This document shows positions 2,850 through 28,949 of a stretch of 32,000 bases of DNA, piece after piece; position 1 is the stretch's first letter; every line of letters begins with the position of its first letter. A program made the position numbers and the translations under genes. Source of the DNA: Synechocystis sp. PCC 6803 substr. PCC-P. GTDB lineage: Bacteria; Cyanobacteriota; Cyanobacteriia; Cyanobacteriales; Microcystaceae. Below the pieces are notes generated by a model. The model saw nothing but the letters and a program-made list of their open reading frames with translations, did no database searches and had not been told where the DNA came from. The stretch covers positions 2,880,001-2,912,000 of the forward strand of contig NC_017039.1 in the NCBI RefSeq assembly GCF_000284455.1, written 5' to 3'.

Positions 2850-3638
2850 ATGTTGGTTAAATACCATCTAGTAGGTTTCCCAATGGCAACGCTAGAAGCC
2901 CCCCCCCATAGTCTGCAACACCAGGAAATTCCCCCCAGCCATCGTATTTTGGTCGTTGAAGACGAGGTTTCCATTCGTGAAACCATTGTCCTATCACTGC
3001 AGGAAGAAGGTTATGAAGTTTATGCGGTGGACGATGGACGTGATGCCTTAGCTCTGTTGCAAGAATTTAGCGAAGACCCCGGTCAGGCCGCCGTAGACCT
3101 GATCATTCTGGACATCATGCTTCCCCAGGTAAACGGCTTAGATGTATGTCGTAGTTTGCGCTTTGGTGGCGATAATACCCCGATTTTAATTGTCAGTGCC
3201 AAAGGCAGTGAAATGGAAAAAGTAACTGGCTTGGAAGTGGGGGCCGATGACTACATCACTAAGCCCTTTAGCCTGAAGGAATTGGTGGCCCGTTGCCGCG
3301 CCATGATCCGTCGCCAGGGCTTGGCTGGTAATAACATTGCCCCATTCCGCAAATTTAGGGATTTGGTGCTTTATCCCCAGGAGTGTCGGGTGTTAATGCG
3401 GGGAGAAGAAGTGAGTTTGGCCCCGAAGGAATTTCGCCTATTGGAATTGTTCATGAGCTATCCCCGTCGAGTCTGGTCTAGGGAACAGTTAATTGAACAT
3501 ATTTGGGGCATTGATTTTATGGGAGACAGCAAAACGGTGGATGTCCATATCCGCTGGCTACGGGAAAAGCTGGAACAGGACCCCAGTCAGCCGGAATATT
3601 TAGTCACAGTGCGGGGCTTTGGCTATCGTTTTGGTTAG
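2850..3638 (+). CDS. sphR: OmpR/PhoB-family two-component response regulator (phosphate-regulon regulator SphR as I recall the locus)
   Basis: Receiver domain: ILVVEDE, LIILDIMLP, ILIVSAKG, GADDYITKPF. Winged-helix output domain: EFRLLELFM, REQLIEHIWG, TVDVHIRWLREKL, TVRGFGYRF. It aligns along its full length with E. coli PhoB. An alternative ATG lies at 2883. No histidine kinase gene is adjacent. Confidence 0.88.
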   Translation: MLVKYHLVGFPMATLEAPPHSLQHQEIPPSHRILVVEDEVSIRETIVLSLQEEGYEVYAVDDGRDALALLQEFSEDPGQAAVDLIILDIMLPQVNGLDVCRSLRFGGDNTPILIVSAKGSEMEKVTGLEVGADDYITKPFSLKELVARCRAMIRRQGLAGNNIAPFRKFRDLVLYPQECRVLMRGEEVSLAPKEFRLLELFMSYPRRVWSREQLIEHIWGIDFMGDSKTVDVHIRWLREKLEQDPSQPEYLVTVRGFGYRFG

Positions 3639-4009: not shown

Positions 4010-5341
4010 ATGGGCCAAACGCCAACGATCGCCATCAACCATTTGGGTTGCGAAAAAAACCGCATTGATTCTGAACATATGTTAGGCCTGCTGGTGGAAG
4101 CGGGTTACCAAGTCGATGCCAATGAAGAATTAGCAGATTACGTCATTGTTAATACCTGTAGTTTTATCCAGGATGCTCGCCAGGAGTCGGTGAGAACCTT
4201 AGTAGAACTAGCGGAAGCAAAGAAGAAAATCGTTATTTCCGGTTGCCTGGCCCAGCATTTCCAGGAGCAACTTTTAGAAGAAATTCCCGAAGCGGTGGCC
4301 GTGGTGGGCACCGGGGATTACCAAAATATTGTTGATATTATTCGACGCACGGAACAGGGTCAGCGAGTTAAAGCCATTTCCCCCAATCCCAGTTTCATAG
4401 CCGACGAAAATTTGCCACGTTATCGCACCACCAACGAGGCGATCGCCTATCTGCGGGTGGCGGAAGGCTGTGATTATCGCTGTGCTTTTTGCATCATCCC
4501 TCAACTACGGGGCAAACAACGGTCTCGCCCGATTGAATCTATTGTGGCGGAAGCCGAACAACTGGCTAGCCAAGGGGTAAAGGAATTAATTCTCATCTCC
4601 CAAATCACCACCAATTATGGATTGGATCTGTATGGGGAGCCGAAACTGGCAGAACTATTACAGGCCCTGGGTAAAGTCGATATTCCTTGGATTCGTATTC
4701 ACTACGCCTATCCCACCGGATTGACCCCCAAAGTAATTGAGGCAATTCGGGATACTCCCAACGTCCTCCCCTATTTGGATTTACCCCTGCAACATTCCCA
4801 TCCCGACATTCTCAGAGCCATGAATCGCCCCTGGCAGGGCCAAGTCAACGACGACATCATCACTAGACTAAAAACTGCCCTTCCCGACGCTGTGCTACGT
4901 ACCACCTTCATTGTTGGTTTTCCTGGGGAAACCGAGGAACATTTTGGGCATTTGCTAGACTTTGTCCAACGCCATCAATTTGACCATGTGGGAGTGTTTA
5001 CTTTTTCCCCAGAGGAAGGCACCGCCGCCTTTGATCTGCCCAATGCTGTGCCCGAAGAAGTAATGGGCGATCGCCGGGATCGGTTAATGGCTCTGCAACA
5101 GCCCATTTCCGCCCAGAAAAATGCCGCTTGTTTGGGGCAGACCCTGGATGTGCTGATCGAGCAGGAAAATCCCAGCACTGGGGAATTCATCGGCCGATCA
5201 ACCCGCTTTGCTCCAGAGGTGGACGGATTAGTCTATGTCAAGGGCAATGCCAATTTGAATGAAATCGTCCCGGTCGTGATCACTGCCACCGACGATTATG
5301 ACCTGTACGGTATGACCGCCGAGGAGGCTAAGGTTTTTTAG
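4010..5341 (+). CDS. rimO: radical-SAM methylthiotransferase, RimO type (ribosomal protein uS12 Asp methylthiotransferase)
   Basis: The N-terminal MTTase domain ([11 protein letters not shown]...VNTCSFI...SGCLAQ) aligns with E. coli RimO. The radical-SAM CxxxCxxC motif is present ([12 protein letters not shown]), as is a C-terminal TRAM-like domain. Confidence 0.9.
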
Positions 5342-5353
5342 CTATTGAACTAA

Positions 5354-5400
5354 GGGGATGGACTGGCTGTGTTATTGACGGTTGGTTCCCAGCCATTCCC
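5354..5400 (+). promoter_or_regulatory. strong RNA stem-loop in the rimO-crhR intergenic spacer
   Basis: GGGGATGGACTGG (5354-5366) pairs with CCAGCCATTCCC (5389-5400): 12 bp, one G-U, one bulged A, 22-nt loop. A T-rich stretch (CTTTTTAA) starts a few nt downstream. Confidence 0.45.
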
Positions 5401-5471
5401 GCAAACTTTTTAATCCTTAATTATTTGCCCACTAAACCGTCTTTTGTTATCCGAAATTATTTAACTTTTCC

Positions 5472-6950
5472 ATGACTAATACTTTGACTAGTACCTTCGC
5501 TGACCTTGGTCTTTCTGAAAAACGTTGTCAACTCTTGGCCGACATTGGCTTTGAGGCTCCCACCCAAATTCAAACTGAAGCCATTCCCCTGCTTTTGAGC
5601 GGCCGGGACATGCTGGCCCAATCCCAAACCGGCACGGGGAAAACCGCCGCCTTTGCCCTACCTTTGATGGACCGCATTGACCCAGAGGGGGACTTGCAAG
5701 CCTTAATTTTGACCCCCACCCGGGAATTGGCCCAGCAGGTGGCGGAAGCAATGAAGGACTTTTCCCACGAGCGCCGTCTATTTATTTTGAATGTGTACGG
5801 TGGTCAATCCATCGAGCGGCAAATTCGCAGCCTAGAACGGGGTGTGCAAATTGTGGTGGGCACCCCTGGACGGGTGATTGACCTAATTGACCGCAAAAAA
5901 CTTAAATTAGAAACCATCCAATGGGTGGTGCTGGATGAAGCGGACGAAATGCTGAGCATGGGCTTCATTGACGATGTGAAAACCATTCTGCGTAAAACTC
6001 CCCCCACCAGGCAGACCGCTTGTTTTTCTGCCACCATGCCCCGGGAAATCAAAGAATTGGTCAACCAATTTTTAAATGATCCCGCCCTGGTGACCGTTAA
6101 ACAGACCCAATCCACCCCCACCCGCATTGAGCAGCAGCTTTATCACGTGCCCCGCGGTTGGTCTAAGGCTAAAGCGCTACAACCGATTCTGGAAATGGAA
6201 GATCCCGAATCCGCCATTATTTTTGTTCGTACTAAACAAACCGCCGCAGACCTCACCAGTCGTTTGCAAGAAGCGGGCCATAGCGTGGATGAGTACCACG
6301 GCAACCTGAGCCAATCCCAACGGGAGCGTTTGGTGCACCGTTTCCGGGATGGCAAAATTAAGCTGGTGGTGGCCACGGACATCGCCGCCCGGGGTTTAGA
6401 TGTGAATAACCTCAGCCATGTGGTCAACTTTGATTTACCCGATAACGCTGAAACCTACATTCACCGCATTGGCCGCACCGGTCGGGCTGGTAAGACTGGT
6501 AAGGCGATCGCCTTGGTGGAACCCATTGACCGTCGTTTACTGCGATCCATCGAAAACCGTCTGAAACAACAAATTGAAGTTTGTACCATTCCTAACCGTT
6601 CGCAGGTGGAAGCCAAGCGGATTGAAAAACTGCAGGAACAACTCAAGGAAGCCCTGACCGGTGAGCGGATGGCCTCCTTCCTTCCTTTAGTGCGGGAATT
6701 GAGCGATGAGTACGATGCCCAGGCGATCGCCGCTGCTGCTTTACAGATGATCTATGACCAGAGCTGTCCCCATTGGATGAAATCCGATTGGGAAGTGCCG
6801 GAAGTTGATTTCAACAAGCCCGTTCTCCGTCGTGGCCGCAATGCTGGCGGTGGCCAGAACAAAAGTGGGGGTGGTTACCAAGGTAAACCGGGCAAACCCC
6901 GTCGCTCCAGCGGTGGCCGTCGTCCTGCCTATAGTGATCGCCAACAGTAA
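5472..6950 (+). CDS. crhR: DEAD-box ATP-dependent RNA helicase (cyanobacterial CrhR)
   Basis: Q motif (FEAPTQIQ), motif I AQSQTGTGKT, PTRELA, DEAD (VLDEADEM), SAT, HRIGRTGRAG, and a Gly/Arg-rich C-terminal tail. It lies immediately downstream of rimO, as in the known rimO-crhR operon. Confidence 0.93.
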   Translation: MTNTLTSTFADLGLSEKRCQLLADIGFEAPTQIQTEAIPLLLSGRDMLAQSQTGTGKTAAFALPLMDRIDPEGDLQALILTPTRELAQQVAEAMKDFSHERRLFILNVYGGQSIERQIRSLERGVQIVVGTPGRVIDLIDRKKLKLETIQWVVLDEADEMLSMGFIDDVKTILRKTPPTRQTACFSATMPREIKELVNQFLNDPALVTVKQTQSTPTRIEQQLYHVPRGWSKAKALQPILEMEDPESAIIFVRTKQTAADLTSRLQEAGHSVDEYHGNLSQSQRERLVHRFRDGKIKLVVATDIAARGLDVNNLSHVVNFDLPDNAETYIHRIGRTGRAGKTGKAIALVEPIDRRLLRSIENRLKQQIEVCTIPNRSQVEAKRIEKLQEQLKEALTGERMASFLPLVRELSDEYDAQAIAAAALQMIYDQSCPHWMKSDWEVPEVDFNKPVLRRGRNAGGGQNKSGGGYQGKPGKPRRSSGGRRPAYSDRQQ

Positions 6951-7010
6951 ACATTGATTCAGATAGCCTGTTTGAAAAAATAAAGCCGGGTTAATGACTC
7001 GGAAAAAAAT

Positions 7011-7050
7011 AACTCCTCCAGAACTAAGACCCTGGGGGAGTTTTACTTTG
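7011..7050. terminator. bidirectional intrinsic terminator between convergent crhR and argC
   Basis: AACTCCTCCAG (7011-7021) pairs with CTGGGGGAGTT (7032-7042): an 11-bp stem with a 10-nt loop. A T-rich tract (TTACTTTG) follows on the + strand. An A-run (AAAAAAAT, 7003-7010) precedes it, which becomes a U-tract for the minus-strand transcript. Confidence 0.6.
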
Positions 7051-7092
7051 ATGGCAATTGGCTCAGATTGGGATGTTTTTCCAACCGAATAA

Positions 7093-8157
7093 CTAGGGAT
7101 AAAAAGCCAGTTGGGGCAAGCCTAAGGATTCTTCCCAACCCATCATGAGGTTTAAGCATTGCACTGCCTGCCCTGCCTGGCCTTTGACCAGATTATCAAT
7201 GGCGGAAAGGACAATTACCCGCCCAGTGCGGGGGTCCACTTCGATGCCAATGTAGCAAAGATTCGTCCCCCAAGCCCATTTCGTTTGGGGGTAAACCCCG
7301 TGGGGCAGAATTTTCACAAAGGGGGAAGCCCGGTAAAAAGCACTGTAAATGGTGATCAGATCATCCCGCACCAAACCCGGATCCCGCAGGGTGGCATAAA
7401 CGGTGGCTAGGATACCGCGCACCATGGGGATCAAGTGAGGCGTGAACTGTACCCTTAGCTCCGTACCGGCCAAATCACTGGCAATCTGTTCAATTTCAGG
7501 GGTATGGCGGTGTTTAGCTACTCCGTAGGCCCCCAAAGATCCTTCTGCTTCTGCTAGGAGCATGTTAACTTTTGCCTCTCTACCTCCCCCGGAAGTACCG
7601 GACTTAGCGTCAATAATGGCAGTTTCGGGCACAATGAAACCCTGTTTCAGCAACGGGGAAAGGGCTAGTAAACTGGCGGTGGGATAACAGCCGGGGCAAC
7701 CAATTAGTTGGGCATCCCTAATAGCATCCCGGTACAATTCCGGCAGGCCGTAAACAGCTTGGTTATTGGTGGCTTGGTCCTGACGATCCTTTTTGTACCA
7801 TTCCGTGTAGGTGTTAAGATTGCGGAAACGATAGTCCGCCGACAGATCTAAAACTTTACAACCTTTGGCCAATAATGCCGGGGCCATGTCACAGGCTAAA
7901 CCATTGGGCAGACCAAGGAACACCGCATCACAACGGCTGGCGATCGCCTCTAGGTCAATGGGTTCGATGGTGAGGTTTACCCGGTGGGTTAAATGGGGAT
8001 AAAGATCACTGTAGGGCTTGCCTGCACTGCTGTGCCCCGCTAGGTAGGTCAATTCCACCTGGGGATGTTCCAACAATAAACGTACTAGCTGAATGCCGCC
8101 ATAGCCCGACGCGCCAATGATACCGACTCTAGCTTTTTCATTCCCCATGGTTCTCAA
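7093..8157 (-). CDS. argC: N-acetyl-gamma-glutamyl-phosphate reductase
   Basis: N-terminal NAD(P)-binding motif [10 protein letters not shown], active-site GCPGCYPTA, and the C-terminal [18 protein letters not shown] signature of ArgC. Confidence 0.93.
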
Positions 8158-8393
8158 ATCTCAAATAATGCCAACAGATTAGTGAAATTGGTGTGTTGGC
8201 TGAATTCTAATATCAAAATTGCCCAATGGCGAACTTGATCCCCGGTTTAGCAAAGATTTTTTCCGGGATCCTTCTGCCCAGAGATATTGCTAGTCCGTCC
8301 TGGGGAGCGGTCAACTTTGCGTACAATGGCTAGACGGGGGTTAGGTCCGATCATCAATGGTCTAACTCTGTCCTACTTTGCGTCTTTTTTCCC

Positions 8394-9026
8394 ATGGGTT
8401 ACATCGCCGTCGTTGATTATGATATGGGCAATCTCCACTCCGTCTGTAAGGGTTTGGAGAAAGTGGGAGGCAATCCCCTGGTAACGGACCAGGCCCACGT
8501 TATCGACGGTGCTACGGCTATTGTCCTGCCGGGGGTAGGTTCCTTTGATCCAGCGGTGCAGCATTTGCGGGCCAGGGGTTTGGAAGAGGTGCTCAAAACG
8601 GCGATCGCCAAGGGAATTCCTTTTTTGGGCATTTGTTTAGGTTCCCAACTGCTATTTGACAGTTCTGAAGAAGGCCAGGAAACGGGGCTGGGCATTATTC
8701 CCGGACAAGTGAAACATTTCCGTTCCGAGCCGGGACTGACCATTCCCCACATGGGCTGGAATGGATTGCAGTTTAACCAACCGGATTTATGTCTCTGGCA
8801 AGATTTACCCCCGGAACCCCAAGTTTACTTCGTCCACTCCTACTACATGGCTCCCCTTGATCCCCAGGTAATTGCCGCTAGTACCACCCACGGCAGTCAA
8901 ACCATCGCAGCGGCGATCGCCAAGGATAATGTGATGGCGGTGCAATTCCACCCGGAAAAATCCTCCACCCTGGGGCTAAAAATTTTGGCTAACTTTGTCA
9001 AAAAAGTTGCTTTGAGCGATATTTAA
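8394..9026 (+). CDS. hisH: imidazole glycerol phosphate synthase, glutamine amidotransferase subunit
   Basis: IAVVDYDMGNLHSV, LPGVGSF, the catalytic-Cys motif GICLGSQLLF, VHSYY and QFHPEKS match the class I GATase HisH. Confidence 0.92.
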   Translation: MGYIAVVDYDMGNLHSVCKGLEKVGGNPLVTDQAHVIDGATAIVLPGVGSFDPAVQHLRARGLEEVLKTAIAKGIPFLGICLGSQLLFDSSEEGQETGLGIIPGQVKHFRSEPGLTIPHMGWNGLQFNQPDLCLWQDLPPEPQVYFVHSYYMAPLDPQVIAASTTHGSQTIAAAIAKDNVMAVQFHPEKSSTLGLKILANFVKKVALSDI

Positions 9027-9028
9027 CC

Positions 9029-10840
9029 CTACCAAGTATCGTGATTGGTGACCGTTGCTTGCAATTTTTCCAACACTTCCGTTACAGGAATTTCCCCCAA
9101 TTCCCCCGAAGCCCTGGTGCGGATATTGAGGGCATTAGCTTCCACTTCCTTCGCTCCAATTACCGCCATAACCGGGATTTTTTGCTTCTCCGCATTGCGG
9201 ATCATTTTTCCTAGGCGATCGCCACTGGTATCCACTTCGGCCCGTAAACCCAAAGATTGCATTTGTTGGACAATGGATTGGGCAAAGGGTAAAAACTCAT
9301 CACTCACCGCCAGTAAGCGAACTTGAATGGGAGCTAACCAGAGGGGAAAATCCCCCGCATACTCTTCAATTAAAATGCCGATTAACCTTTCCAAGGAACC
9401 GAAGGGGGCCCGGTGAATCATTACAGGGCGTTGGCGGGAACCATCGGCGGCAATGTACTCCAAATCAAACCTTTCTGGTAAGTTGTAATCCACCTGCACG
9501 GTGCCCAGTTGCCATTCCCGTTCCAGGGCGTCTTGGAAAATGAAATCTAGTTTGGGGCCGTAGAAAGCCGCTTCCCCTGGGGCTTCAAAATAATCCATCT
9601 CTAATTCCTGCACCGCCCGACGGATAGCTCCCTGGGCCTTTTCCCAAGCTTCATCGGAGCCAATGTATTTGTCGGATTCTGGATCCCGGAAAGAGAGGCG
9701 GGCTTTAAAGTTTTTCAGTTGCAAACTTTTAAACACGGTCAGAATCAGATCCACTACGCTCAAAAATTCCTCGTCTAACTGATCTGGAGTAACGAATAAA
9801 TGGGAATCGTCCACCGTAAAGCCCCGCACCCTGGTTAATCCCCCCAGTTCCCCCGATTGCTCGTAGCGATAAACAGTACCAAATTCCGCTAACCGTAGGG
9901 GCAAATCCCGATAGGAGCGCAGTTCACTCTTGTAAATTTGAATGTGGAAAGGGCAGTTCATCGGTTTAAGCACAAAGCCCATTTCCTGCGCCGCTTCCTC
10001 GGGAGATTCCGCCATCATGGGGAACATATCTTCCTGGTATTTCTGCCAATGCCCCGATTGTTTAAATAGATCTACCCGGGCGATGTGGGGGGTAACCACG
10101 GGCAAATAACCCCTTTTAATTTGTTCTTGCTTGAGAAAATCCTCCAAAATGGTGCGGATAATGGTCCCCTTGGGAGTCCAGAGGGGTAAACCGGGGCCCA
10201 CTGGGTCAGCAAAAATAAATAGCCCCAATTCTTTGCCTAATTTACGGTGATCTCTTTTGAGAGCTTCTTCCTTGCGCCGTTGGTATTCCGCCAATTGTTC
10301 CGGGGTTTCCCAAGCAGTACCGTAAATCCGTTGGAGCTGAGCTTTGTTGGCATCCCCCCGCCAGTAGGCCCCGGCCACACTTTCTAAGGCGATCGCCTTG
10401 GGATTAATGTCCGCCGTGGATTCCAAATGGGGCCCAGCACAAAGATCCCACCATTGATCCCCCAGATGGTAAACGGTGATGGGTTCGTGGATGCTGTCGA
10501 GGATTTCTAATTTGTAGGGTTCTTGGATGGATTCAATTCTTTGTTTAGCCTCTTCCCGACTAATTTCTTCTCGAATTACTGGCAATTTTTTATTGATGAT
10601 TTTCACCATCTCTTTTTTGATGGCCTTTAAATCTGCCTCTGTAAACGGTTCTGCCACATCAAAATCGTAGTAAAACCCCGTTTCCGTCCAGGGACCAATG
10701 GTCACTTGGGCTTTGGGAAAAAGTTTCTGCACCGCCATGGCCATGACGTGGGAAGTGGTGTGGCGGATTTTTTTTAGTTGCTCCGACTCACTGGTACGGG
10801 GAAGGGCAATGGTATCGGGGGAAACTACGGTTTTGGCCAT
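9029..10840 (-). CDS. thrS: threonine--tRNA ligase (lacks the N-terminal TGS domain)
   Basis: Editing-domain HxxxH (IRHTTSHVMAMAVQKLFP), AGAYWRGD, RDHRKLGKELGLF, class II core motifs (FRDPESD..., HRAPFGSLERLIGILIE) and an anticodon-binding C-terminus. It aligns with E. coli ThrRS from about residue 70 onward. Confidence 0.95.
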   Translation of the reverse strand: MAKTVVSPDTIALPRTSESEQLKKIRHTTSHVMAMAVQKLFPKAQVTIGPWTETGFYYDFDVAEPFTEADLKAIKKEMVKIINKKLPVIREEISREEAKQRIESIQEPYKLEILDSIHEPITVYHLGDQWWDLCAGPHLESTADINPKAIALESVAGAYWRGDANKAQLQRIYGTAWETPEQLAEYQRRKEEALKRDHRKLGKELGLFIFADPVGPGLPLWTPKGTIIRTILEDFLKQEQIKRGYLPVVTPHIARVDLFKQSGHWQKYQEDMFPMMAESPEEAAQEMGFVLKPMNCPFHIQIYKSELRSYRDLPLRLAEFGTVYRYEQSGELGGLTRVRGFTVDDSHLFVTPDQLDEEFLSVVDLILTVFKSLQLKNFKARLSFRDPESDKYIGSDEAWEKAQGAIRRAVQELEMDYFEAPGEAAFYGPKLDFIFQDALEREWQLGTVQVDYNLPERFDLEYIAADGSRQRPVMIHRAPFGSLERLIGILIEEYAGDFPLWLAPIQVRLLAVSDEFLPFAQSIVQQMQSLGLRAEVDTSGDRLGKMIRNAEKQKIPVMAVIGAKEVEANALNIRTRASGELGEIPVTEVLEKLQATVTNHDTW

Positions 10841-11011
10841 GGATTGTGTTTACAAAAAGTTTTCAGACGAAGGAATTCAGCCCTTTCCCATGATACTTGA
10901 TCCGCTCCCGCCCCCCACTGGGTTGAAGGTTAGACCCATGCTGCTGGTCGAAATCTGGCCCATGGGAACAGGTTATAATCCAAGGCGTTTTCCTTCATCT
11001 CTGGTTTTGTC

Positions 11012-12607
11012 GTGCCCTACGCCATTGATTTTGGTACTACCAATACCGTCATTGCTCGCTGGAATGAAGCAACCCGTCAGGGAAATTTAATTGACCTCCC
11101 CTCCCTGAGCCATCCCCTGGGGGATAGTGGCCCTTTGGTTCCCAGTTTGCTATATGTGGAAAATGCCGCCCTCGGCCAAGTGGCGATCGCCAGGGAAGTG
11201 CTGGATCGGGGCAGGGATATTTCTACGGATACCAGGTTTTTTAAGAACTTTAAGCGGGGCATTGGGGTGGCAGTGCAGGGATTTTTGCCCCAATTGGATG
11301 GCCATACCTTGTCCTTAGAGACATTGGGGCAGTGGTATTTAGATAAATTGATCCGAATATTGACAGAGCAGGAGGGTCAAGGGCCGGATTGTTTGGCTTT
11401 AACGGTGCCGGTGGATAGCTTTGAATCCTATCGCCATTGGCTGAGTCACACCTGTCGCAGTTGGGGAGTGGAAGAAGTACGCCTGGTGGATGAACCGACC
11501 GCCGCCGCATTGGGTTACGGAGTGGGGGATGCCAGTCAAATCTTGGTGTTGGATTTTGGTGGGGGAACGGTGGATTTTTCCTGGGTGCAATTGGGGGACA
11601 GAGGACAAAAGGGTCGTTCGGGATTTTTGCTCAAATGGGGCGGTATTCTTGGGGGTTCTAAAGCGGAGGAAAAATCAGCCCTGGCCAAGGTATTGGCGAA
11701 AGCGGGGGCCAATTTGGGCGGGAGTGACATCGATTATTGGATTAGTGAATATTTCACCGAGGCTCAGGGTTTACAGGTTTCCCCCTGGATTAGACGATTA
11801 GCGGAAAGATTGAAAATTGCCCTAGGGGAAGCGGAAGAAGCCACAGAGGTTTACTTCGACGATCAAGCCCTGGAATCCTATGAATTTCAACTACGGCGAT
11901 CGGACTTAACAGAAATTTTGCAACAACGGCAATTTTTTGAACGATTAACAGCCCTGTGGGAACAGGTTCAGCAAACGGCCCAACGGCGAGGTTTGACTCC
12001 CGCTAACCTGGATGCAGTGTTGGTGGTGGGGGGCACCAGTCAATTGCCCATGGTGCAGGATTGGATTAACGCCCAATTTCCCGCCGGTAAAATTCGCAAT
12101 CAACAACCCTTTGGGGCGATCGCCTTGGGAGCGTTGCAAATTTACCAAGGCCGTGAGGTGCAGGATTATCTCTACCATAGCTACGGAGTTAGGTATTGGA
12201 ATCGGCGTAAAAATAGCCATAATTGGCACCCAATTATTAAAAATGGGCAAACCTACCCCATGGCCGAACCCATTGAATTAACCCTAGGCGCTTCCTTGGA
12301 TAATCAGCCCAGCATTGAATTAATTGTGGGGGAACTAGGTTCCAGCATTGGGGCTACGGAAGTTTACTTTGACGGTAATCAGTTAATTACCAGGGTTTTA
12401 GAAAATCAAGCATTCACGGTCCAACCCCTCAATGACCGCAATGGGGCCCGACAAATTGCCCAACTTTCTCCCCCTGGGGTGCCCGGTGGCGATCGCATCA
12501 AGGTCAAATTTTGGGTAGATGACCAGCGCTACCTGCGTCTGACGGTGGAGGATTTGTTGCAGCAAAAGCTGTTACTGGAAAATCAAGTGGTAGCCCAGTT
12601 GCGTTAG
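11012..12607 (+). CDS. Hsp70/DnaK-like ATPase, short form without the helical lid
   Basis: GTG start. Actin-fold phosphate motifs are YAIDFGTTNTVIA, LVDEPTAAALGYG, VLDFGGGTVDFS and VLVVGGTSQLPMV. The C-terminal beta-rich segment (IKVKFWVDDQRYLRLTVEDL) resembles the end of an Hsp70 substrate-binding beta-sandwich. Confidence 0.85.
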   Translation: MPYAIDFGTTNTVIARWNEATRQGNLIDLPSLSHPLGDSGPLVPSLLYVENAALGQVAIAREVLDRGRDISTDTRFFKNFKRGIGVAVQGFLPQLDGHTLSLETLGQWYLDKLIRILTEQEGQGPDCLALTVPVDSFESYRHWLSHTCRSWGVEEVRLVDEPTAAALGYGVGDASQILVLDFGGGTVDFSWVQLGDRGQKGRSGFLLKWGGILGGSKAEEKSALAKVLAKAGANLGGSDIDYWISEYFTEAQGLQVSPWIRRLAERLKIALGEAEEATEVYFDDQALESYEFQLRRSDLTEILQQRQFFERLTALWEQVQQTAQRRGLTPANLDAVLVVGGTSQLPMVQDWINAQFPAGKIRNQQPFGAIALGALQIYQGREVQDYLYHSYGVRYWNRRKNSHNWHPIIKNGQTYPMAEPIELTLGASLDNQPSIELIVGELGSSIGATEVYFDGNQLITRVLENQAFTVQPLNDRNGARQIAQLSPPGVPGGDRIKVKFWVDDQRYLRLTVEDLLQQKLLLENQVVAQLR

Positions 12608-15461: not shown

Positions 15462-16481
15462 ATGGAATTCGACTATCTTCATTTATACGTTGACGATTAT
15501 CAGTCAGCTCATCGTTGTTATCAACGTCAATGGGGTTTCACTTGCGTAAATAAAATTATTACTGACCAAGGAATTACTGGCATCTACCAACAGGGGCAAA
15601 TACTTCTGCTAATTTCGGCATCGGAATCTAGTTTGAGTAGATATGCCGACTATCTCCAGAAACATCCCCCCGGCGTAGGTGAAGTCGCTTGGCAGGTGGC
15701 CAATTGGCAAAAAATTCAGCATCAATTATCAGAATTACAGATAGAAACCACACCAGTTATTCATCCTCTGACTAAAGCAGAAGGATTAACTTTTTTGCTC
15801 TGGGGAGATGTGCACCATAGCATTTATCCTGTTCGTTCTGAGCTAAATCAGAATAAAACATTGCATGGTGTTGGTTTAACGACCATCGACCATGTGGTGC
15901 TAAACATTGCCGCCGATCAATTTACCCAGGCTTCCCAATGGTATCAACAGGTGTTTGGCTGGTCGGTGCAGCAGAGTTTTACTGTCAATACGCCCCATTC
16001 TGGTCTGTATAGCGAAGCCCTGGCCAGTGCCAATGGGAAAGTCCAATTTAACCTCAATTGTCCCACCAATAACAGTTCCCAAATTCAAACTTTTTTAGCC
16101 AATAACCATGGGGCTGGTATTCAACATGTCGCTTTTTCCACTACGAGTATTACGCGAACTGTGGCTCATCTGCGGGAAAGGGGCGTAAATTTTTTAAAAA
16201 TCCCCACTGGCTATTATCAACAGCAAAGAAACAGTAGCTATTTTAATTATGCAAGTTTGGATTGGGATACCTTACAGTGCCTAGAAATTTTGCTGGATGA
16301 TCAAGATAATACGGGGGAGCGATTACTGCTACAAATTTTTAGTCAGCCTTGCTATGGAGTAGGCACTCTATTTTGGGAAATTATTGAACGCCGCCACCGG
16401 GCAAAAGGATTTGGTCAAGGAAACTTTCAAGCTCTCTATGAAGCGGTGGAGACTTTAGAAAAACAGTTAGAAGTGCCATAA
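15462..16481 (+). CDS. hppD: 4-hydroxyphenylpyruvate dioxygenase
   Basis: Two vicinal-oxygen-chelate modules (IDHVVLNI..., GIQHVAF) and the C-terminal HPPD signature LLLQIFSQP...FWEIIERR...GFGQGNFQALYEAVE. Confidence 0.87.
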   Translation: MEFDYLHLYVDDYQSAHRCYQRQWGFTCVNKIITDQGITGIYQQGQILLLISASESSLSRYADYLQKHPPGVGEVAWQVANWQKIQHQLSELQIETTPVIHPLTKAEGLTFLLWGDVHHSIYPVRSELNQNKTLHGVGLTTIDHVVLNIAADQFTQASQWYQQVFGWSVQQSFTVNTPHSGLYSEALASANGKVQFNLNCPTNNSSQIQTFLANNHGAGIQHVAFSTTSITRTVAHLRERGVNFLKIPTGYYQQQRNSSYFNYASLDWDTLQCLEILLDDQDNTGERLLLQIFSQPCYGVGTLFWEIIERRHRAKGFGQGNFQALYEAVETLEKQLEVP

Positions 16482-16537
16482 TAACTTGGGTTAGGTTATC
16501 AATAACTTGTGTGCGTTACTAAAGCATAATTAACATT

Positions 16538-17908
16538 ATGAATACTGCTAAAACTGTTGTTGCTGAGCAAAGGGACTTTTTTCGTCAGGGCAAAACTAAA
16601 TCAGTCCAAGATAGATTAACAGCTCTAGCAAAATTAAAAACGCAAATTCAAGCCCAGGAAGAGGAAATTATTAAGGCCCTTAAGCAAGATTTTGGTAAGC
16701 CCACCTTTGAAAGCTATGTAAACGAAATTTTGGGGGTAATTAGGGAAATTAATTATTATCAAAAACATCTTCAGCAATGGTCTAAGCCCCAACGGGTAGG
16801 TACGAATCTGATGGTTTTTCCTGCCAGTGCCCAGTTAAGACCAGAACCCCTTGGTGTAGTGCTAATTATTAGCCCCTGGAATTATCCTTTTTATCTTTGT
16901 TTAATGCCCTTGATCGGGGCGATCGCCGCTGGAAATTGTGTGGTGGTAAAGCCGTCGGAATATACTCCAGCTATTAGTGGGGTAATTACCAGATTAATCC
17001 AAAATGTATTTTCCCCGGCTTGGGCAACAGTGGTGGAGGGAGATGAAACCATTAGCCAACAATTGTTACAGGAAAAATTTGACCATATTTTCTTTACCGG
17101 CAGCCCTAGGGTGGGTCGGTTAATTATGGCAGCTGCGGCAGAGCAATTAACCCCAGTTACGTTGGAATTGGGGGGTAAATCTCCCTGTGTGGTGGATAGG
17201 GAAATCAACCTCCAGGAAACAGCCAAACGCATTATGTGGGGCAAGCTAGTCAATGCTGGCCAAACCTGTGTGGCACCGGATTATTTATTGGTGGAGCAAT
17301 CCTGCTTAGAACAACTTTTACCAGCTTTACAACAGGCAATTCAGATGCTTTTCGGGGAAAATCCAGCCCATAGCCCTGACTACACTCGCATTGTTAACCA
17401 ACAACAATGGTCACGGTTAGTTAGTTTATTAAGCCATGGCAAAGTAATTACAAGGGGAGATCATAACGAAGGCGATCGCTACATTGCCCCAACTTTAATC
17501 ATCGATCCAGATTTAAATTCTCCCTTAATGCAAGAGGAAATATTTGGCCCAATTTTGCCAATTTTAACTTATCAGAGTTTGTCAGAAGCAATAGATTTTA
17601 TTAACATCAAACCTAAACCATTGGCACTTTATTTTTTTAGCAATAATCGGCAAAAACAGGAGGAAATTTTGCAATCTACCAGTTCCGGTAGTGTTTGTTT
17701 GAACGATATTTTGCTTCATTTAACTGTGACAGACTTACCCTTTGGTGGGGTGGGAGAAAGTGGTATGGGACGCTACCATGGCAAGGCTACTTTTGACACA
17801 TTGAGCAATTATAAAAGCATTTTACGACGACCCTTTTGGGGGGAAACTAATTTACGCTATTCTCCCTATGGCAAAAAAATGAATTTAATCAAAAAGTTGT
17901 TCTCCTAG
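16538..17908 (+). CDS. class-3-type NAD(P)+ aldehyde dehydrogenase
   Basis: ISPWNYPF, FTGSPRVG, catalytic Glu in LELGGKSP, catalytic Cys in GQTCVAPDY, and EEIFGPILP. The length (456 aa) is typical of ALDH3/fatty-aldehyde dehydrogenases. Confidence 0.9.
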   Translation: MNTAKTVVAEQRDFFRQGKTKSVQDRLTALAKLKTQIQAQEEEIIKALKQDFGKPTFESYVNEILGVIREINYYQKHLQQWSKPQRVGTNLMVFPASAQLRPEPLGVVLIISPWNYPFYLCLMPLIGAIAAGNCVVVKPSEYTPAISGVITRLIQNVFSPAWATVVEGDETISQQLLQEKFDHIFFTGSPRVGRLIMAAAAEQLTPVTLELGGKSPCVVDREINLQETAKRIMWGKLVNAGQTCVAPDYLLVEQSCLEQLLPALQQAIQMLFGENPAHSPDYTRIVNQQQWSRLVSLLSHGKVITRGDHNEGDRYIAPTLIIDPDLNSPLMQEEIFGPILPILTYQSLSEAIDFINIKPKPLALYFFSNNRQKQEEILQSTSSGSVCLNDILLHLTVTDLPFGGVGESGMGRYHGKATFDTLSNYKSILRRPFWGETNLRYSPYGKKMNLIKKLFS

Positions 17909-17916
17909 GATTATTC

Positions 17917-18690
17917 ATGGCCGACCGTCCCCAGTTGAGTATTATTATTCCCGTGTTTAATGAAGCAAAAATTTTACAAAAGTCTCCGACTGAAAATACC
18001 AGACAATATTTGGGACAATTTACCGAGGATCAACGGATAGAAATTTTAATTATTGATGGGGGCAGTCAGGATAGCACAGTGGAGTTATGCCAGACCTATG
18101 CTGATTCTTTACCTTTACACGTTTTTATTAGTCCCCAAACAGGGCGGGCTAACCAAATGAATTATGGTGCTAGTTTATCTAGGAGTGAATGGTTATTATT
18201 TTTACATTTAGATAGTATTTTGCCCCATGACTTTTTTACTCAAATTGCTGAGATATTAACCAATTCTAGTTACATAGCCGGAGCTTTTGGTTTAACTATT
18301 GATCTCCCCGGTAGACCCTATCGTTGGCTAGAAAAATTAATTCTTTGGCGCTCCATTTACGCCCAAAAACCCTATGGCGATCAAGGTTTATTTATCCAAC
18401 GGCAAGATTTTCAACAGTTGGGAGGGTTTGCTGATTTGCCCATTATGGAAGATTACCAATTTATGCAAAAACTGGGAAAACAACGGGGCAAGGTGGCGAT
18501 CGCCGGGGGCAAAGTGATTACATCTGGACGGCGGTGGCAAAAGCTGGGGCTACTGCGGACTACGGCCATTAACCAGCTGGTGGTGGCGGGCTATCATCTG
18601 GGGGTTTCTCCCCAAACCTTGGTCCATTGGTATCGGGGGGCAAAACCGAATCGGGGGAACCGGCCAAACTCCGACGGGACTTCTTGTTAG
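17917..18690 (+). CDS. family-2 glycosyltransferase-like protein
   Basis: LSIIIPVFNE, IIDGGSQDST and LFLHLDS (a DxD-like motif) fit the GT-A fold. It starts 8 nt after the ALDH stop. The substrate is unknown. Confidence 0.75.
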   Translation: MADRPQLSIIIPVFNEAKILQKSPTENTRQYLGQFTEDQRIEILIIDGGSQDSTVELCQTYADSLPLHVFISPQTGRANQMNYGASLSRSEWLLFLHLDSILPHDFFTQIAEILTNSSYIAGAFGLTIDLPGRPYRWLEKLILWRSIYAQKPYGDQGLFIQRQDFQQLGGFADLPIMEDYQFMQKLGKQRGKVAIAGGKVITSGRRWQKLGLLRTTAINQLVVAGYHLGVSPQTLVHWYRGAKPNRGNRPNSDGTSC

Positions 18691-25274: not shown

Positions 25275-25886
25275 TTAACTGGAAAAAATTCTTTGCAGAG
25301 ATAGGGTAAACCCTGGCAAAATAGTTTCTCCGGATAGGTTGCTGGGATTTTCTAATATTTCTACTGGCTGTCCAGAGCGGTAAATTTCCACCTTTTTATT
25401 TTGGGGGTCAATCAGCCAGCCCAACTGAGCGCCGTTTTCCATATATTCCTGCATCTTTTCCTGCAATTTTTTGAGGCTGTCGGTTTTAGAACGCAATTCC
25501 ACTACAAAATCGGGACAAAGGGGCATAAATCCTTGTCGTTGTTCCTGGGTGAGGGATTCCCAGCGCGCCTTAGTAACCCAAGATGCATCCGGCGATCGAT
25601 TGGCCCCATTGGGCAACTCAAACCCCGTGGAGGAATCAAACCCTTCCCCAAGGCGATCGTTAGCTTCACACCAGATACCGAGTTGAGTAGTCAAATGAAA
25701 ATTACGATTACCCGATTCGCCACCAGTGGGGGGATTCACAATTAATATTCCTGTTGCTGTACGTTCAAGCCTTAAATCTCGATTTTCCGCCGCTAAAATG
25801 GCAAATTGGGCCGGCGTGACCTGTAGGGCCAGTTCTTCGGGAATATTCAACGGCAGTGATTTCGGATCATCAACGACCTGAACCAT
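25275..25886 (-). CDS. Uma2-family (DUF820) PD-(D/E)xK nuclease-like protein
   Basis: The family-typical core is PDASWV...PDFVVELRS...K...EY...GAQLGWLIDP. The ATG at 25886 is preceded by GAGGAA (SD). The track ORF extends 12 codons further, to 25922. Confidence 0.8.
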   Translation of the reverse strand: MVQVVDDPKSLPLNIPEELALQVTPAQFAILAAENRDLRLERTATGILIVNPPTGGESGNRNFHLTTQLGIWCEANDRLGEGFDSSTGFELPNGANRSPDASWVTKARWESLTQEQRQGFMPLCPDFVVELRSKTDSLKKLQEKMQEYMENGAQLGWLIDPQNKKVEIYRSGQPVEILENPSNLSGETILPGFTLSLQRIFSS

Positions 25887-26002
25887 GGCAATTTCCTCTG
25901 TGCAACCAGGGGGACTTTTCAATTTTAGTCCTTAGCCCCCGTCTGCGAAGTTTCAGTTTATCTTCCCAATTTCAGGGCATCGAGAAGTCGTAAAAGCAGC
26001 CC

Positions 26003-27320: not shown

Positions 27321-27629
27321 TTAATCCTCCGGCAAACGAACCTGCAAACCTTCGGGCACAATATCTAATCCCAGCAAAACTTTTTCCGTATTGGACATAT
27401 CGCCGATAATCCGCTGTAGGGGAGGGGGCAATTGTTTGATCAAGGTGGGGGTGACCATGATTTTTTCCTCTTCCGCCCGTTGAGGCTGTTCCAACACGTC
27501 AATGATTTCAACATTGTACTGATCCCCTAGATCTTCTTGGCAAATGCGGTAAATATTGGCGATCGCCTGCTGAGAACGCACCGAATTACCCGTGATATAA
27601 AGTCTTAACACAATCCTATTCATATCCAT
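27321..27629 (-). CDS. kaiB3: KaiB-family circadian clock protein homolog (kaiB3 by locus memory)
   Basis: LRLYITGNSVRSQQAI, IDVLEQPQRAEEEKIMVTPTLIK, LPPPLQRIIGDMSNTEKVLLGLDI align nearly end-to-end with S. elongatus KaiB (LKLYVAGNTPNSVRAL ... [49 protein letters not shown]). The start is ambiguous: TTG 27641, ATG 27629 or ATG 27623. Confidence 0.9.
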   Translation of the reverse strand: MDMNRIVLRLYITGNSVRSQQAIANIYRICQEDLGDQYNVEIIDVLEQPQRAEEEKIMVTPTLIKQLPPPLQRIIGDMSNTEKVLLGLDIVPEGLQVRLPED

Positions 27630-27802
27630 CGCTGATAACAAATAAAGCCAATGCTTAAATCTAGCTCAATTAATCTGGGGTCAGTAACCTGAATTAAAGG
27701 AAATTTAAATAAAACAATCAAATAATGGATTATTAATCTAGTTAAAACAAAGTGTAATAGGTTATAGTTAAACAACTAAACAATCAAGCAAAGATAATTA
27801 AT

Positions 27803-28702
27803 TTAAGAACTATCTTTGGGGGGAAATCGTGGTGAAATACGCGAGGAAATATTTAAGTTATTCAAGCTGACATAGTATTTGCGATAGAAGCTTGCTAAAT
27901 AGCCCATTAATTCTAATACTATCAATCTGCCCTCGGTGGCGTAGGCTTGGGATTTAATTACATTAATATTGTGATTCTTTTCCTTTAGGACGGTGGTGTG
28001 GATTTCGATAATATCCCTGGGGCTGGCTTTCATAAAACCTAGGCGATCGGCTAAATTTCTCAAGCGCTCAGAAAGATTATGGTCTACCCTAAAAGCGCGT
28101 TGATCCAATGCTAATTCTAACAACTCTCCATAGGTTTGTTTCAACTCCCCAAATAATTCTGGAAAGGAATCTTTGATGGTATCAGAACCAAACATCCGGG
28201 CAGTGACGCTGGTGGTGGAGCTAATTAAGGTTTCCAGGGCGCTGTATTCCTTCTGTTGGCTGGCTAAGTTTCGTTGATTTTCACTCTTGCGACGATAAAT
28301 ATTTCTTTCTAAAACCGATAGTAATTCATAATAAAGCAAATAACTGTCGAGATTTTTCAGTCGTAAATAGCCATCGGCCCCATGCTGGAACGCTTGAATA
28401 ACTAAATGCTCATCTTCACTTTGGCTATAGACAATGATGGATTGGTCGGGGAAAATTGTGCGGGCTTTAATTAGGGTATCAATGCCTTGGAGTTCCGATA
28501 GAAATAGATCTAATAAAACCACGGCAAACTCTCGATCTTGGCAAATGTCCACCGCCTCAGCCAAATTTGACACCGTCGTAATTTGTACCGGTAGACGTTC
28601 CACCAAAGGGGATACAATCGACGGTCCGAAGCAATGGTCAACCATGGCTGCCGTTGCTGAATCATCTTCAATCAGTAGAATTTGGTAGGGCTCCTGGGTC
28701 AT
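27803..28702 (-). CDS. kaiA3: chimeric response-regulator receiver fused to a KaiA-like C-terminal domain (KaiA3 by locus memory)
   Basis: The N-terminal CheY-like receiver has ILLIEDD, VVLLDLFL, IIVYSQS and GADGYLRLK. The C-terminal segment PRDIIEIHTTVLKEK...EGRLIVLELMGYLASFYRKY aligns by eye with the S. elongatus KaiA C-terminus VVEIHMELMDEF...LDYRLTLIDVIAHLCEMYRR. The ATG at 28702 gives 299 aa; the track ORF starts at TTG 28723. Confidence 0.75.
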   Translation of the reverse strand: MTQEPYQILLIEDDSATAAMVDHCFGPSIVSPLVERLPVQITTVSNLAEAVDICQDREFAVVLLDLFLSELQGIDTLIKARTIFPDQSIIVYSQSEDEHLVIQAFQHGADGYLRLKNLDSYLLYYELLSVLERNIYRRKSENQRNLASQQKEYSALETLISSTTSVTARMFGSDTIKDSFPELFGELKQTYGELLELALDQRAFRVDHNLSERLRNLADRLGFMKASPRDIIEIHTTVLKEKNHNINVIKSQAYATEGRLIVLELMGYLASFYRKYYVSLNNLNISSRISPRFPPKDSS

Positions 28703-28949
28703 GTAATCACGGCTAAGTTCCAAGGTGAGGGGTTTATGGGTTAGTTAAGTTTAATGCTATGCCTTTGCCTCTCTGGGGTTTACCTGGTAATGTCCCTATG
28801 CCCGCAGTTTTGAGACAAATTAAAGCACAATTAAAACTTGGCAAATAAGCTTTGACTAATCCTAAATATTTCTATGATTTAATTTGGGATTTAGCCACAC
28901 TTATTATATGGAGCTTTTAACTAAGTTTTTAATGTCGGTTAATTAATCT

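Follow-up and report, generated by a model that had tools for sequence, protein, structure and literature searches.

The kaiA3–kaiB3 Locus

The stretch of DNA analysed here (32 kb; hereafter, the window) carries on its minus strand kaiA3 and kaiB3 of Synechocystis sp. PCC 6803, an already published pair of genes, with the following features:

27803..28702, minus strand: kaiA3 (sll0485), encoding 299 aa, with its stop codon (ORF list; exact match to BAA10575.1/Q55820_SYNY3; named KaiA3 in PMC11372060)
28343..28690, minus strand: receiver (REC) domain, residues ~5–120 (PF00072, NarL 1a04, AF2, Foldseek)
28508..28510, minus strand: codon for the Asp D65, which closes strand 3 and is the predicted phospho-acceptor (translation check; family acceptor column; D65 named in PMC11372060)
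28220..28345, minus strand: predicted long linker helix, residues ~120–161, leading from the receiver to the C-terminal domain (AF2 full-length model)
27839..28162, minus strand: KaiA-like C-terminal helical bundle, residues ~181–288 (PF07688, hhalign, AF2, Foldseek)
27624..27802, minus strand: AT-rich kaiA3–kaiB3 spacer of 161–179 nt, unusually long for the family (sequence)
27321..27623, minus strand: kaiB3 (sll0486), read from the conserved ATG and encoding 100 aa, with its stop codon (PF07689, PDB KaiB, translation check)

The kaiA3 ORF is read from an ATG codon to give 299 aa, an alternative upstream TTG at 28723 yielding 306 aa. Its product is identical to Sll0485 of Synechocystis sp. 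PCC 6803 (BAA10575.1; Q55820, Q55820_SYNY3), the protein that Köbler et al. named KaiA3 in Nat Commun in 2024, after a preprint in 2021 (PMC11372060). The same chimera, its D65, the synteny and the stimulation of KaiC3 were described for Sll0485 in that work; therefore, the object considered here is KaiA3 itself without any difference (the same sequence and length of 299 aa, the same D65, a kaiB3 gene downstream, and kaiC3 at another place). The initial annotation, made from the sequence of the window, had listed this minus-strand 299-aa ORF at 28702–27803 and assigned it to sll0485/sll0486, an assignment borne out by the sequence identity with Sll0485 and by the pairing of the names sll0486 and kaiB3 in the literature. 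It had also noted that the protein was long annotated as a NarL-type regulator, in agreement with the database names ‘NarL subfamily’ and ‘DNA-binding NarL/FixJ family response regulator’, and that it had recently been proposed as KaiA3 acting together with KaiB3 and with a KaiC3 encoded far away, as PMC11372060 indeed reports. Its remark that the locus was recently described rather than unknown is decisive for novelty: since KaiA3 has been in print from 2021 (preprint) and 2024 (paper), flagging the locus is a correct finding but not a discovery, and the comparison of 80 loci presented below adds only increments to the published work.

The longest ORF of kaiB3 spans 27321–27641 on the minus strand and opens with a TTG at 27641, while the start shared with S. 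salina is the ATG at 27623; the first in-frame ATG of kaiB3 reads ATA in that species. The product belongs to the KaiB family, with PF07689 scoring 111.2 bits against a threshold of 27 (E = 2e-32) and KaiB chains in the PDB matching at 1e-25. It falls under the NCBIfam KaiB equivalog cut-offs (95.9 vs. 110; 90.3 vs. 145.3), in line with KaiB3 being a diverged paralog. A clear KaiB homolog had been announced about 160–175 nt downstream on the same strand; the distance is 161 nt to the start of the longest ORF and 179 nt to the ATG, and the median gap in the family is 2 nt. The spacer shows no terminator-like site, no Rfam match, and no conserved motif, and is 67% identical to that of S. salina, compared with 89% for the coding sequence. 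Co-transcription of kaiA3 and kaiB3 is proposed on the basis of a spacer free of terminator-like sites; against this, kaiB3 may possess an internal promoter, since the length of the spacer far exceeds the family median.

KaiC was found neither in a Pfam scan of every non-shadow member of the 29 ORFs listed with 150 aa or more (the three outside the scan are overlapping shadow ORFs of 210 aa or less) nor by tblastn with a verified KaiC against the 32-kb window (best E = 0.58), in keeping with the earlier claim that no KaiC-like ORF lies within it. For comparison, 80 species-level loci were drawn from 256 positive genomes. A kaiB gene is located directly downstream of the kaiA3 homolog in 79 of the 80, and a kaiC gene follows kaiB in 47 of the 70 loci with room for it (KaiC verified at E = 3e-221). 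A-B-C linkage is found in the family, whereas only kaiB is linked in the PCC 6803 window.

Domain Architecture of KaiA3

The N-terminal domain of KaiA3 is a member of the receiver family. PF00072 matches it at 43.5 bits (cut-off 30.2; E = 3.9e-11), the AF2 full-length model (pLDDT 89.5) presents an alternation of five strands with helices, and Foldseek matches to receivers reach a target-normalised TM of 0.81. Among receivers, that of the response regulator NarL from E. coli matches best (1a04; E = 3.6e-7, residues 4–119). A translation check places the motif residues exactly where they had been read at the outset, namely the acidic pocket E12-D13-D14, D65 in VVLLDLFL, S93 in IIVYSQS, and K116 in YLRLK. 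Four of the five residues of the active-site quintet (E12, D13, D65, and S93) are canonical, but K116 lies one residue past the canonical column, which is occupied by L115. This one-residue shift is a feature of the Synechocystis clade; the alignment with NarL opens a one-residue gap at the receiver Lys, the Pfam match ends at residue 113, and deep-branching family members read YLxK. In the description of this domain as an apparently phosphorylatable CheY-type receiver, the fold is borne out, and ‘apparently phosphorylatable’ is the one weak point, given the offset Lys.

Could KaiA3 be an ordinary NarL/FixJ-type transcriptional regulator that controls kaiB3 or other genes through DNA binding, its resemblance to KaiA being coincidental? 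The database names, the receiver match to NarL, and an NCBIfam NarL model as top match would suggest so. However, that model reaches 45 bits against a cut-off of 250, the likeness to NarL is restricted to the receiver, and KaiA3 has no LuxR/GerE helix-turn-helix DNA-binding domain, for which Pfam returned no match even at E values up to 1. The C-terminal domain is instead modelled as a long helical bundle matching KaiA, the linkage to kaiB and kaiC is near-universal in the family, and the output of KaiA3 is the protein–protein regulation of KaiC3, on which it acts directly according to published biochemistry (PMC11372060). This explanation is extremely improbable and can be considered as already effectively refuted.

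Between both domains, residues ~120–161 match no family in the Pfam scan and are predicted to form a long helix, unlike the linker of canonical KaiA. This segment has been called enigmatic (PMC11372060). Since a long helix replaces the canonical linker, the geometry of the dimer may differ from that of KaiA.

In the C-terminal part, PF07688 (KaiA) is the sole non-receiver Pfam match of KaiA3. It scores 17.4 bits (18.5 for the domain alone), below the gathering score of 22.2, with library-wide E values of 0.005 and 0.0023, respectively. The same model is matched individually by 13 of 27 diverse family members (E ≤ 0.1; best 2e-4), and no unrelated family recurs among them. Comparison of KaiA3 with the KaiA family profile by hhalign gave a P of 0.0092 and a probability of 4.4% over 93 aligned columns, in the register found by HMMER, a result that is suggestive without being decisive. 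Both programs reproduce the alignment to KaiA that had been made by eye, with IIEIHTTVL at residues 231–239 and RLIVLELMGYLASFYRKY at 259–276, and the aligned positions include the EIH, the Arg of YRL, and the YR of EMYRR that are invariant or near-invariant in KaiA. A search of the PDB with the profile of the KaiA3 C-terminal family returned four matches, of which three were KaiA in the same register; their E of ~0.8, behind that of a SHERP match (0.13), is not significant and is used for register consistency only.

The AF2 model of the C-terminal domain (pLDDT 88; pTM 0.79) adopts a KaiA-type helical-bundle fold, as KaiA C-domains occupy ranks 1, 2, 4, 6, 7, 9, 10, and 23 among the Foldseek matches in the PDB. 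They match with probabilities of 0.96–1.0, TM values of 0.52–0.72 normalised to the target, and, for the isolated domains, rmsd values of 3.5–4.8 Å. The structural comparison suggested in the initial annotation, thus, yields KaiA C-domains as the best PDB matches, although at E values of only 0.03–0.75 and with generic designed helical bundles interleaved among them. Moreover, full-length KaiA (4g86) aligns with the full-length model over 310 columns across both domains. Taken individually, none of the sequence or structure tests reaches the usual significance thresholds for KaiA homology; nevertheless, sequence, profile, and predicted fold all have the KaiA C-terminal domain as their best match, and these signals, each weak alone, agree in register and together support the assignment.

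The weak Foldseek E values and the designed bundles among the matches could also be expected if the domain were an RsbU-N-like or generic four-helix dimerisation module whose action on KaiC3 arose by convergence. The N-terminal domain of RsbU (PF08673) shares a related small helical dimerisation fold with the KaiA3 C-domain, the KaiA fold being common to both KaiA and RsbU (PMC11372060). Furthermore, RsbU_N is a weak second match in 5 of the 27 members (best E = 0.036), and Pfam co-annotates some true KaiA proteins with it. However, KaiA stands above RsbU_N in every test (13 vs. 5 members; best E of 2e-4 vs. 0.036), and eight KaiA entries but zero RsbU structures appear in the top 50 Foldseek matches. 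In addition, KaiA-conserved residues are found at the aligned positions, as indicated above, the gene order A-B-C mirrors kaiABC, and KaiA3, unlike RsbU, contains no phosphatase domain. Convergence from such a module is, consequently, improbable, and a diverged KaiA C-terminal domain is the preferred assignment.

KaiA3 in a Second Circadian Oscillator

The best explanation of these data, with a probability of about 0.9, is that the locus is kaiA3–kaiB3 and encodes a KaiA3 with a diverged KaiA C-terminal domain and a modulatory receiver, operating with KaiB3 and KaiC3 in a second oscillator. In the mechanism proposed, KaiA3 is a two-domain protein, with a true receiver at the N-terminus, where canonical KaiA has a pseudo-receiver, and a C-terminal four-helix bundle probably derived from that of KaiA. 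Through this bundle, KaiA3 would form homo-oligomers (at least dimers), bind KaiC3, and stimulate its autophosphorylation, and binding may take place via the C-terminal region of KaiC3, by analogy with canonical KaiA. In turn, KaiB3, putatively co-transcribed just downstream, opposes KaiA3 and promotes dephosphorylation, and the three proteins constitute a second post-translational circadian oscillator. The location of kaiC3 elsewhere on the chromosome would be due to the splitting of an ancestral kaiA3–kaiB3–kaiC3 cluster in the Synechocystis lineage.

The interaction between KaiA3 and KaiC3, the stimulation of KaiC3 autophosphorylation, the antagonism by KaiB3, the oscillation of KaiA3/KaiB3/KaiC3 in vitro and in vivo, and the phenotypes of mutants have all been published (PMC11372060), whereas the present analysis contributes the identity of the protein, the assignment of its domains, the similarity in fold, the synteny, and the finding that the acceptor Asp is dispensable in evolution. 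The initial proposal of a receiver fused to a KaiA-like domain beside KaiB, with KaiC encoded elsewhere, is upheld on both sides, since our own tests converge on KaiA and the same description is given in PMC11372060. The importance of KaiA3 lies in having shown that two coupled KaiABC oscillators can operate in one cyanobacterium, and that activators of the KaiA type also occur beyond the canonical family and beyond the cyanobacteria.

Canonical KaiA from Synechococcus elongatus and Thermosynechococcus (4g86, 1q6a, 1v2z, and 5jwr) has the same succession of a CheY-like fold and a C-terminal helical bundle. Both proteins are alike in C-domain fold and alignment register, both genes are located upstream of kaiB, and each protein stimulates the autophosphorylation of its own KaiC partner (PMC11372060). 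However, identity between the C-domains is ~17–22%, under the Pfam cut-off, and the partners are not interchangeable, as Synechococcus KaiA does not act on KaiC3 (PMC11372060). As had been noted at the outset, the acceptor Asp is missing from canonical KaiA, which has a pseudo-receiver instead; this pseudo-receiver senses quinones (PMC11372060). KaiA3 of PCC 6803, in contrast, retains this residue as D65.

The Acceptor Asp and Flanking Kinases across the Family

The acceptor column contains Asp, the ancestral state of the family, in 53 of the 80 loci. In the remaining 27 the residue has been replaced, in at least 10 separate events, and the acceptor Asp is, thus, evolutionarily dispensable; loss had previously been reported in two genera (PMC11372060). 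Besides these losses, the wider sample adds to PMC11372060 the displaced Lys, the REC-PAS-KaiA variants in which some Chloroflexaceae homologs have a PAS domain inserted, and the flanking kinases. Since the Asp has been replaced so many times in a family whose C-terminal domain has remained strongly conserved, and since recombinant KaiA3 is active in vitro without added kinase (PMC11372060), the receiver is most likely a modulatory input that the core activator function can do without.

D65 was considered a potential phosphorylation site in the 2024 paper (PMC11372060), and, according to a review of July 2026, the input signal and any cognate kinase of KaiA3 are still to be identified. We infer a regulatory role for a putative phosphorylation of D65. 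An extension of the best explanation, rather than a replacement for it, is that the receiver works as a live phospho-switch, with a histidine kinase phosphorylating D65 to gate KaiA3 and the KaiA3B3C3 oscillator being entrained via two-component signalling. This idea, voiced both in PMC11372060 and in the July 2026 review, is consistent with the intact E12, D13, D65, and S93 in PCC 6803 and with the ancestral state of the Asp. It must be set against the repeated replacement of the Asp, which implies a core function without need of this residue, the displaced Lys of the Synechocystis clade, the kinase-free operation of the oscillator in vitro (PMC11372060), and a window in which the Pfam scan of ORFs found no kinase. 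On balance, a live switch is a real possibility but not the expected outcome.

In lineages that branch deeply (Chloroflexota, Verrucomicrobiota, and such cyanobacteria as branch deeply), the cluster has histidine kinases as neighbours. Same-strand kinases lie directly beside it in 18 of the 80 loci, 17 of which retain the Asp, a distribution that would favour the switch. However, flanking kinases are equally compatible with clock outputs, and their apparent tracking of Asp retention (raw Fisher p = 0.004) vanished after collapse to independent lineages (6/20 vs. 1/10, p = 0.37); therefore, this association was rejected as evidence. Seven flanking kinases were scanned, and most of them are PAS-containing HisKA/HATPase_c proteins, several also with a receiver. 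For the kinases beside kaiA3–kaiB in two loci (L042 and L065), searches of the PDB gave no match to SasA of the kind that a SasA-like output kinase should give; these kinases may serve as inputs or as outputs.

A more specific proposal is that the KaiA3 receiver is a working phospho-input whose partner is among the kinases flanking kaiA3B3C3 in the deep-branching lineages, and that each independent loss of the Asp turned a true receiver into a pseudo-receiver. We regard this proposal as rather unlikely; if true, the repeated losses would offer a living model for the origin of the pseudo-receiver of canonical KaiA. In any case, the comparative data narrow the question of the input: many lineages can do without the Asp, and deep-branching ones have candidate partner kinases in synteny with the cluster. 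Apart from kaiB and kaiC, no conserved neighbour spans the taxa of the 80 loci. Only subsets of these loci share Kdp-type ATPase genes or a GGDEF-EAL gene as neighbours of the kaiA3 homologs.

Genomic setting of kaiA3 and kaiB3

The initial annotation had flagged a receiver joined to a KaiA-like domain upstream of a KaiB homolog and recognized it as the recently described KaiA3–KaiB3 pair. This finding is real, and both its location and its interpretation are correct. The system is already known, with experimental proof, since Köbler et al. (Nat Commun 2024, PMC11372060; preprint 2021) studied exactly this protein and named it KaiA3, a NarL-type receiver carrying D65 followed by a KaiA-like C-terminus. 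According to the same paper, kaiA3 is co-transcribed with kaiB3, KaiA3 binds KaiC3 and stimulates its autophosphorylation, KaiB3 antagonises this effect, and Synechococcus KaiA and KaiB1 do not cross-react; phosphorylation rhythms occur in vitro and in vivo, and mutants exhibit growth and rhythm phenotypes. The names sll0486 and kaiB3 appear together in earlier papers as well. A review of July 2026 states that no signal or partner kinase has yet been assigned to the KaiA3 receiver. The residual value lies in the question of the receiver's input and in comparative increments concerning synteny, Asp losses, the Lys shift, variants, and kinases. The two genes are as follows:

27803-28702, minus strand, kaiA3 (sll0485), 299 aa from the ATG at 28702
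27321-27641, minus strand, KaiB ORF (kaiB3, sll0486), 106 aa from a TTG

The 299-aa product matches BAA10575.1 / Q55820_SYNY3 of Synechocystis sp. PCC 6803 exactly. An upstream TTG at 28723 yields 306 aa, and public annotation uses both starts (28702 ATG, 299 aa, BAA10575.1; 28723 TTG, 306 aa, WP_223211295.1), the D65 numbering of the literature being that of the 299-aa form. The downstream ORF on the minus strand is indeed a KaiB homolog (Pfam KaiB at E=2e-32, PDB KaiB chains at 1e-25). Since its first in-frame ATG is ATA in S. salina, the conserved start is the ATG at 27623 (MNRIV..., 100 aa). The resulting KaiB3 (27321-27623, minus strand) scores under both NCBIfam KaiB equivalog cut-offs (95.9 vs 110 and 90.3 vs 145.3) and is a diverged KaiB paralog, which automated naming may overlook. 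The AT-rich spacer between both genes (161-179 nt in PCC 6803) is 67% identical to that of S. salina, compared with 89% for the kaiA3 coding sequence, and neither a terminator-like site nor an Rfam match was found in it; therefore, no element in it stands out as conserved, and its features agree with co-transcription.

The window contains no KaiC, as originally claimed: of the 29 ORFs listed for the 32 kb with a length of 150 aa or more, none encodes one, all being scanned with Pfam except three overlapping shadow ORFs no longer than 210 aa, and tblastn with a verified KaiC gave a best E=0.58. Histidine kinase genes are likewise absent from the 32 kb. The sole further receiver-domain gene is an OmpR-type response regulator (receiver and Trans_reg_C, 2850-3638, plus strand), which is also a weak tblastn match of the KaiA3 query.

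Family synteny

A scan with one genome per species returned 256 genomes encoding a relative of the KaiA3 C-terminal domain, and the best 80 loci, belonging to Cyanobacteria, Chloroflexota, one Blastocatellia MAG, and one verrucomicrobial MAG, were examined. In 79 of these 80, kaiB is the immediate downstream neighbour in the same orientation, and the contig ends in the remaining one. The gap between the two genes has a median of 2 nt and is at most 12 nt in 65 of the 79, so that the spacers of PCC 6803 and S. salina (182 nt) are outliers. Of the 70 loci with room for it, 47 have a verified KaiC (E=3e-221) after kaiB, and the missing kaiC in the window is therefore a lineage-specific split, common to Synechocystis and its Merismopediaceae relatives, Microcystis, Pannus, Geminocystis, and others. 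The published account likewise places kaiC3 elsewhere in the genome in Synechocystis and Microcystis and adjacent in most others (PMC11372060).

Several loci depart from the simple arrangement. An Anaerolineae MAG (comparison locus L060, 4563-10151; coordinates within each locus) carries two tandem sets:

4563-5432 and 7685-8515, kaiA3-like genes
5771-6061 and 8587-8880, kaiB genes
6135-7646 and 8877-10151, kaiC genes

Three Crocosphaera loci (L011 3-1196, L015 1090-3094, L027 210-2214) have a further kaiB and kaiC pair, located 7-9 kb upstream of kaiA3 on the other strand, and thus two Kai clusters in close proximity. In three Rivularia assemblies (L069, L070, L076, ~10830-12350), the kaiC that comes after kaiB is broken into two overlapping ORFs (415 and 115 aa), which reflects either a frameshift common to all three or an error in assembly. 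Moreover, an E1-E2 (P-type) ATPase gene of ~716 aa lies divergently upstream of kaiA3, on the opposite strand, in 12 loci spread over several groups of cyanobacteria (L030, L039-L041, L046, L047, L065, L067, L069, L070, L072, L076), six of which have two more conserved upstream ORFs (~560 and ~200 aa) resembling the other Kdp subunits.

The KaiA-like C-terminal domain

The C-terminal motifs quoted initially are in place (IIEIHTTVL at 231-239, RLIVLELMGYLASFYRKY at 259-276), and their by-eye alignment with KaiA has the same register as the KaiA matches of the family C-terminal profile in the PDB, where three of the four sequences at E<=10 are KaiA (E about 0.8). KaiA (PF07688) is the sole non-receiver Pfam family matched by KaiA3 (library-wide E=0.005). 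When 27 diverse family members were scanned singly, 13 matched KaiA (best E=2e-4) and five matched RsbU_N, a related fold, with no further recurrent family among them. A profile-profile comparison with true KaiA proteins, based on an alignment seeded from a T. elongatus segment in which all sequences found carry PF07688, gave P=0.009 over 93 columns.

An AlphaFold2 model of residues 150-299 (pLDDT 88, pTM 0.79) was also compared with the whole PDB by the Foldseek-type search initially proposed, and KaiA C-terminal domains were the best matches, at ranks 1, 2, 4, 6, 7, 9, 10, and 23 (probability 0.96-1.0, TM 0.52-0.72 normalised to target, E 0.03-0.75). Weak structure-search E-values are usual for helical bundles. 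In the full-length model (pLDDT 89.5), a CheY-like receiver is connected to the bundle by a long helix at 120-161, and full-length KaiA 4g86 aligns with this model over 310 columns at E=3.8e-6. KaiA is far better supported than an RsbU_N-like or generic bundle, given the lower number of RsbU_N matches and the KaiA C-domains among the top fold matches. Each single test is not strong and all are concordant, and we regard the domain as a diverged KaiA C-domain, with the fold and context of KaiA and a score below the Pfam threshold (17.4 bits vs a gathering score of 22.2). That KaiA3 is instead a NarL-type DNA-binding regulator is excluded by the lack of a detectable helix-turn-helix domain, the NCBIfam NarL score (45 bits vs a cut-off of 250), the synteny with kaiB and kaiC, and the published biochemistry (PMC11372060).

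The receiver and its variants

The receiver is recognized by Pfam (43.5 bits vs a threshold of 30.2), and all motifs quoted for it occur as described (E12-D13-D14, D65 in VVLLDLFL, S93 in IIVYSQS, K116 in YLRLK). Its description as apparently phosphorylatable fits four of the five catalytic residues, which are in place, and is less sure for the Lys, which is displaced. Deep-branching members have the β5 Lys at its canonical place (YLxK), the Synechocystis clade has it one residue further on (YLRLK), and Microcystis has lost it; in agreement with the shift, the Pfam match stops at residue 113 and the NarL alignment is gapped by one residue there. Phosphorylation of D65 in Synechocystis is accordingly possible and somewhat doubtful. 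Of the best 80 loci, 53 keep the acceptor Asp, and the other 27 have S, N, G, E, or F at this position. A neighbour-joining tree with Fitch parsimony over these loci reconstructs Asp as the ancestral state, with at least 10 independent replacements; PMC11372060 names the replacement for two genera only.

Four Chloroflexaceae homologs are longer (528-542 aa):

L059, 720-2321
L077, 5140-6726
L079, 5042-6628
L080, 5411-7039

The one scanned (L077) contains an inserted PAS domain, which follows the receiver and precedes the KaiA-like domain (REC-PAS-KaiA-C), a variant of which no mention was found in the available text of PMC11372060.

Proposed mechanism

The reading that we favour, at a probability of about 0.9, is that KaiA3 would oligomerise and act on KaiC3 through its KaiA-like domain, promoting autophosphorylation, while KaiB3 would counteract this effect, the three proteins forming a second oscillator coupled to KaiA1B1C1. 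The receiver would be an add-on input, with core activity independent of it. Its dispensability for core activity is suggested by the repeated loss of the acceptor Asp beside a nearly invariant C-terminal domain, and by the in vitro activity of recombinant KaiA3 without any kinase (PMC11372060).

Flanking histidine kinases

Same-strand histidine kinases lie directly beside the cluster in 18 of the best 80 loci, and the Asp is kept in 17 of these 18. Collapsed to independent lineages, the comparison of kinases with Asp retention (6/20 vs 1/10, p=0.37) is not significant. The seven kinases scanned are mostly PAS-containing HisKA/HATPase_c proteins, several with a receiver too. Three loci, from Chloroflexota, the verrucomicrobial MAG, and Rivularia-type cyanobacteria, have such genes on the same strand immediately upstream of kaiA3 and/or downstream of kaiC:

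L063, 8017-9528 and 12386-13972
L078, 12297-13967 and 14703-16613
L065, 7906-9090 and 12553-14556

Five of these six are REC-PAS-HisKA-HATPase_c hybrids, one of them (L065, 12553-14556) with two receivers, and the sixth is PAS-HisKA-HATPase_c. The flanking kinases could be outputs of the clock just as well as inputs; by sequence they do not resemble SasA, PDB searches with those of L042 and L065 having returned no SasA match.

Other features of the window

A Uma2-family putative restriction endonuclease ORF (25275-25922, minus strand) lies ~1.4 kb downstream of kaiB3, past a methyltransferase gene. GC content drops to 0.41 at 16001-18000, compared with 0.45-0.55 elsewhere in the window, and this dip, which may be horizontally acquired DNA, includes two ORFs:

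16538-17908, aldehyde dehydrogenase
17917-18690, family-2 glycosyltransferase
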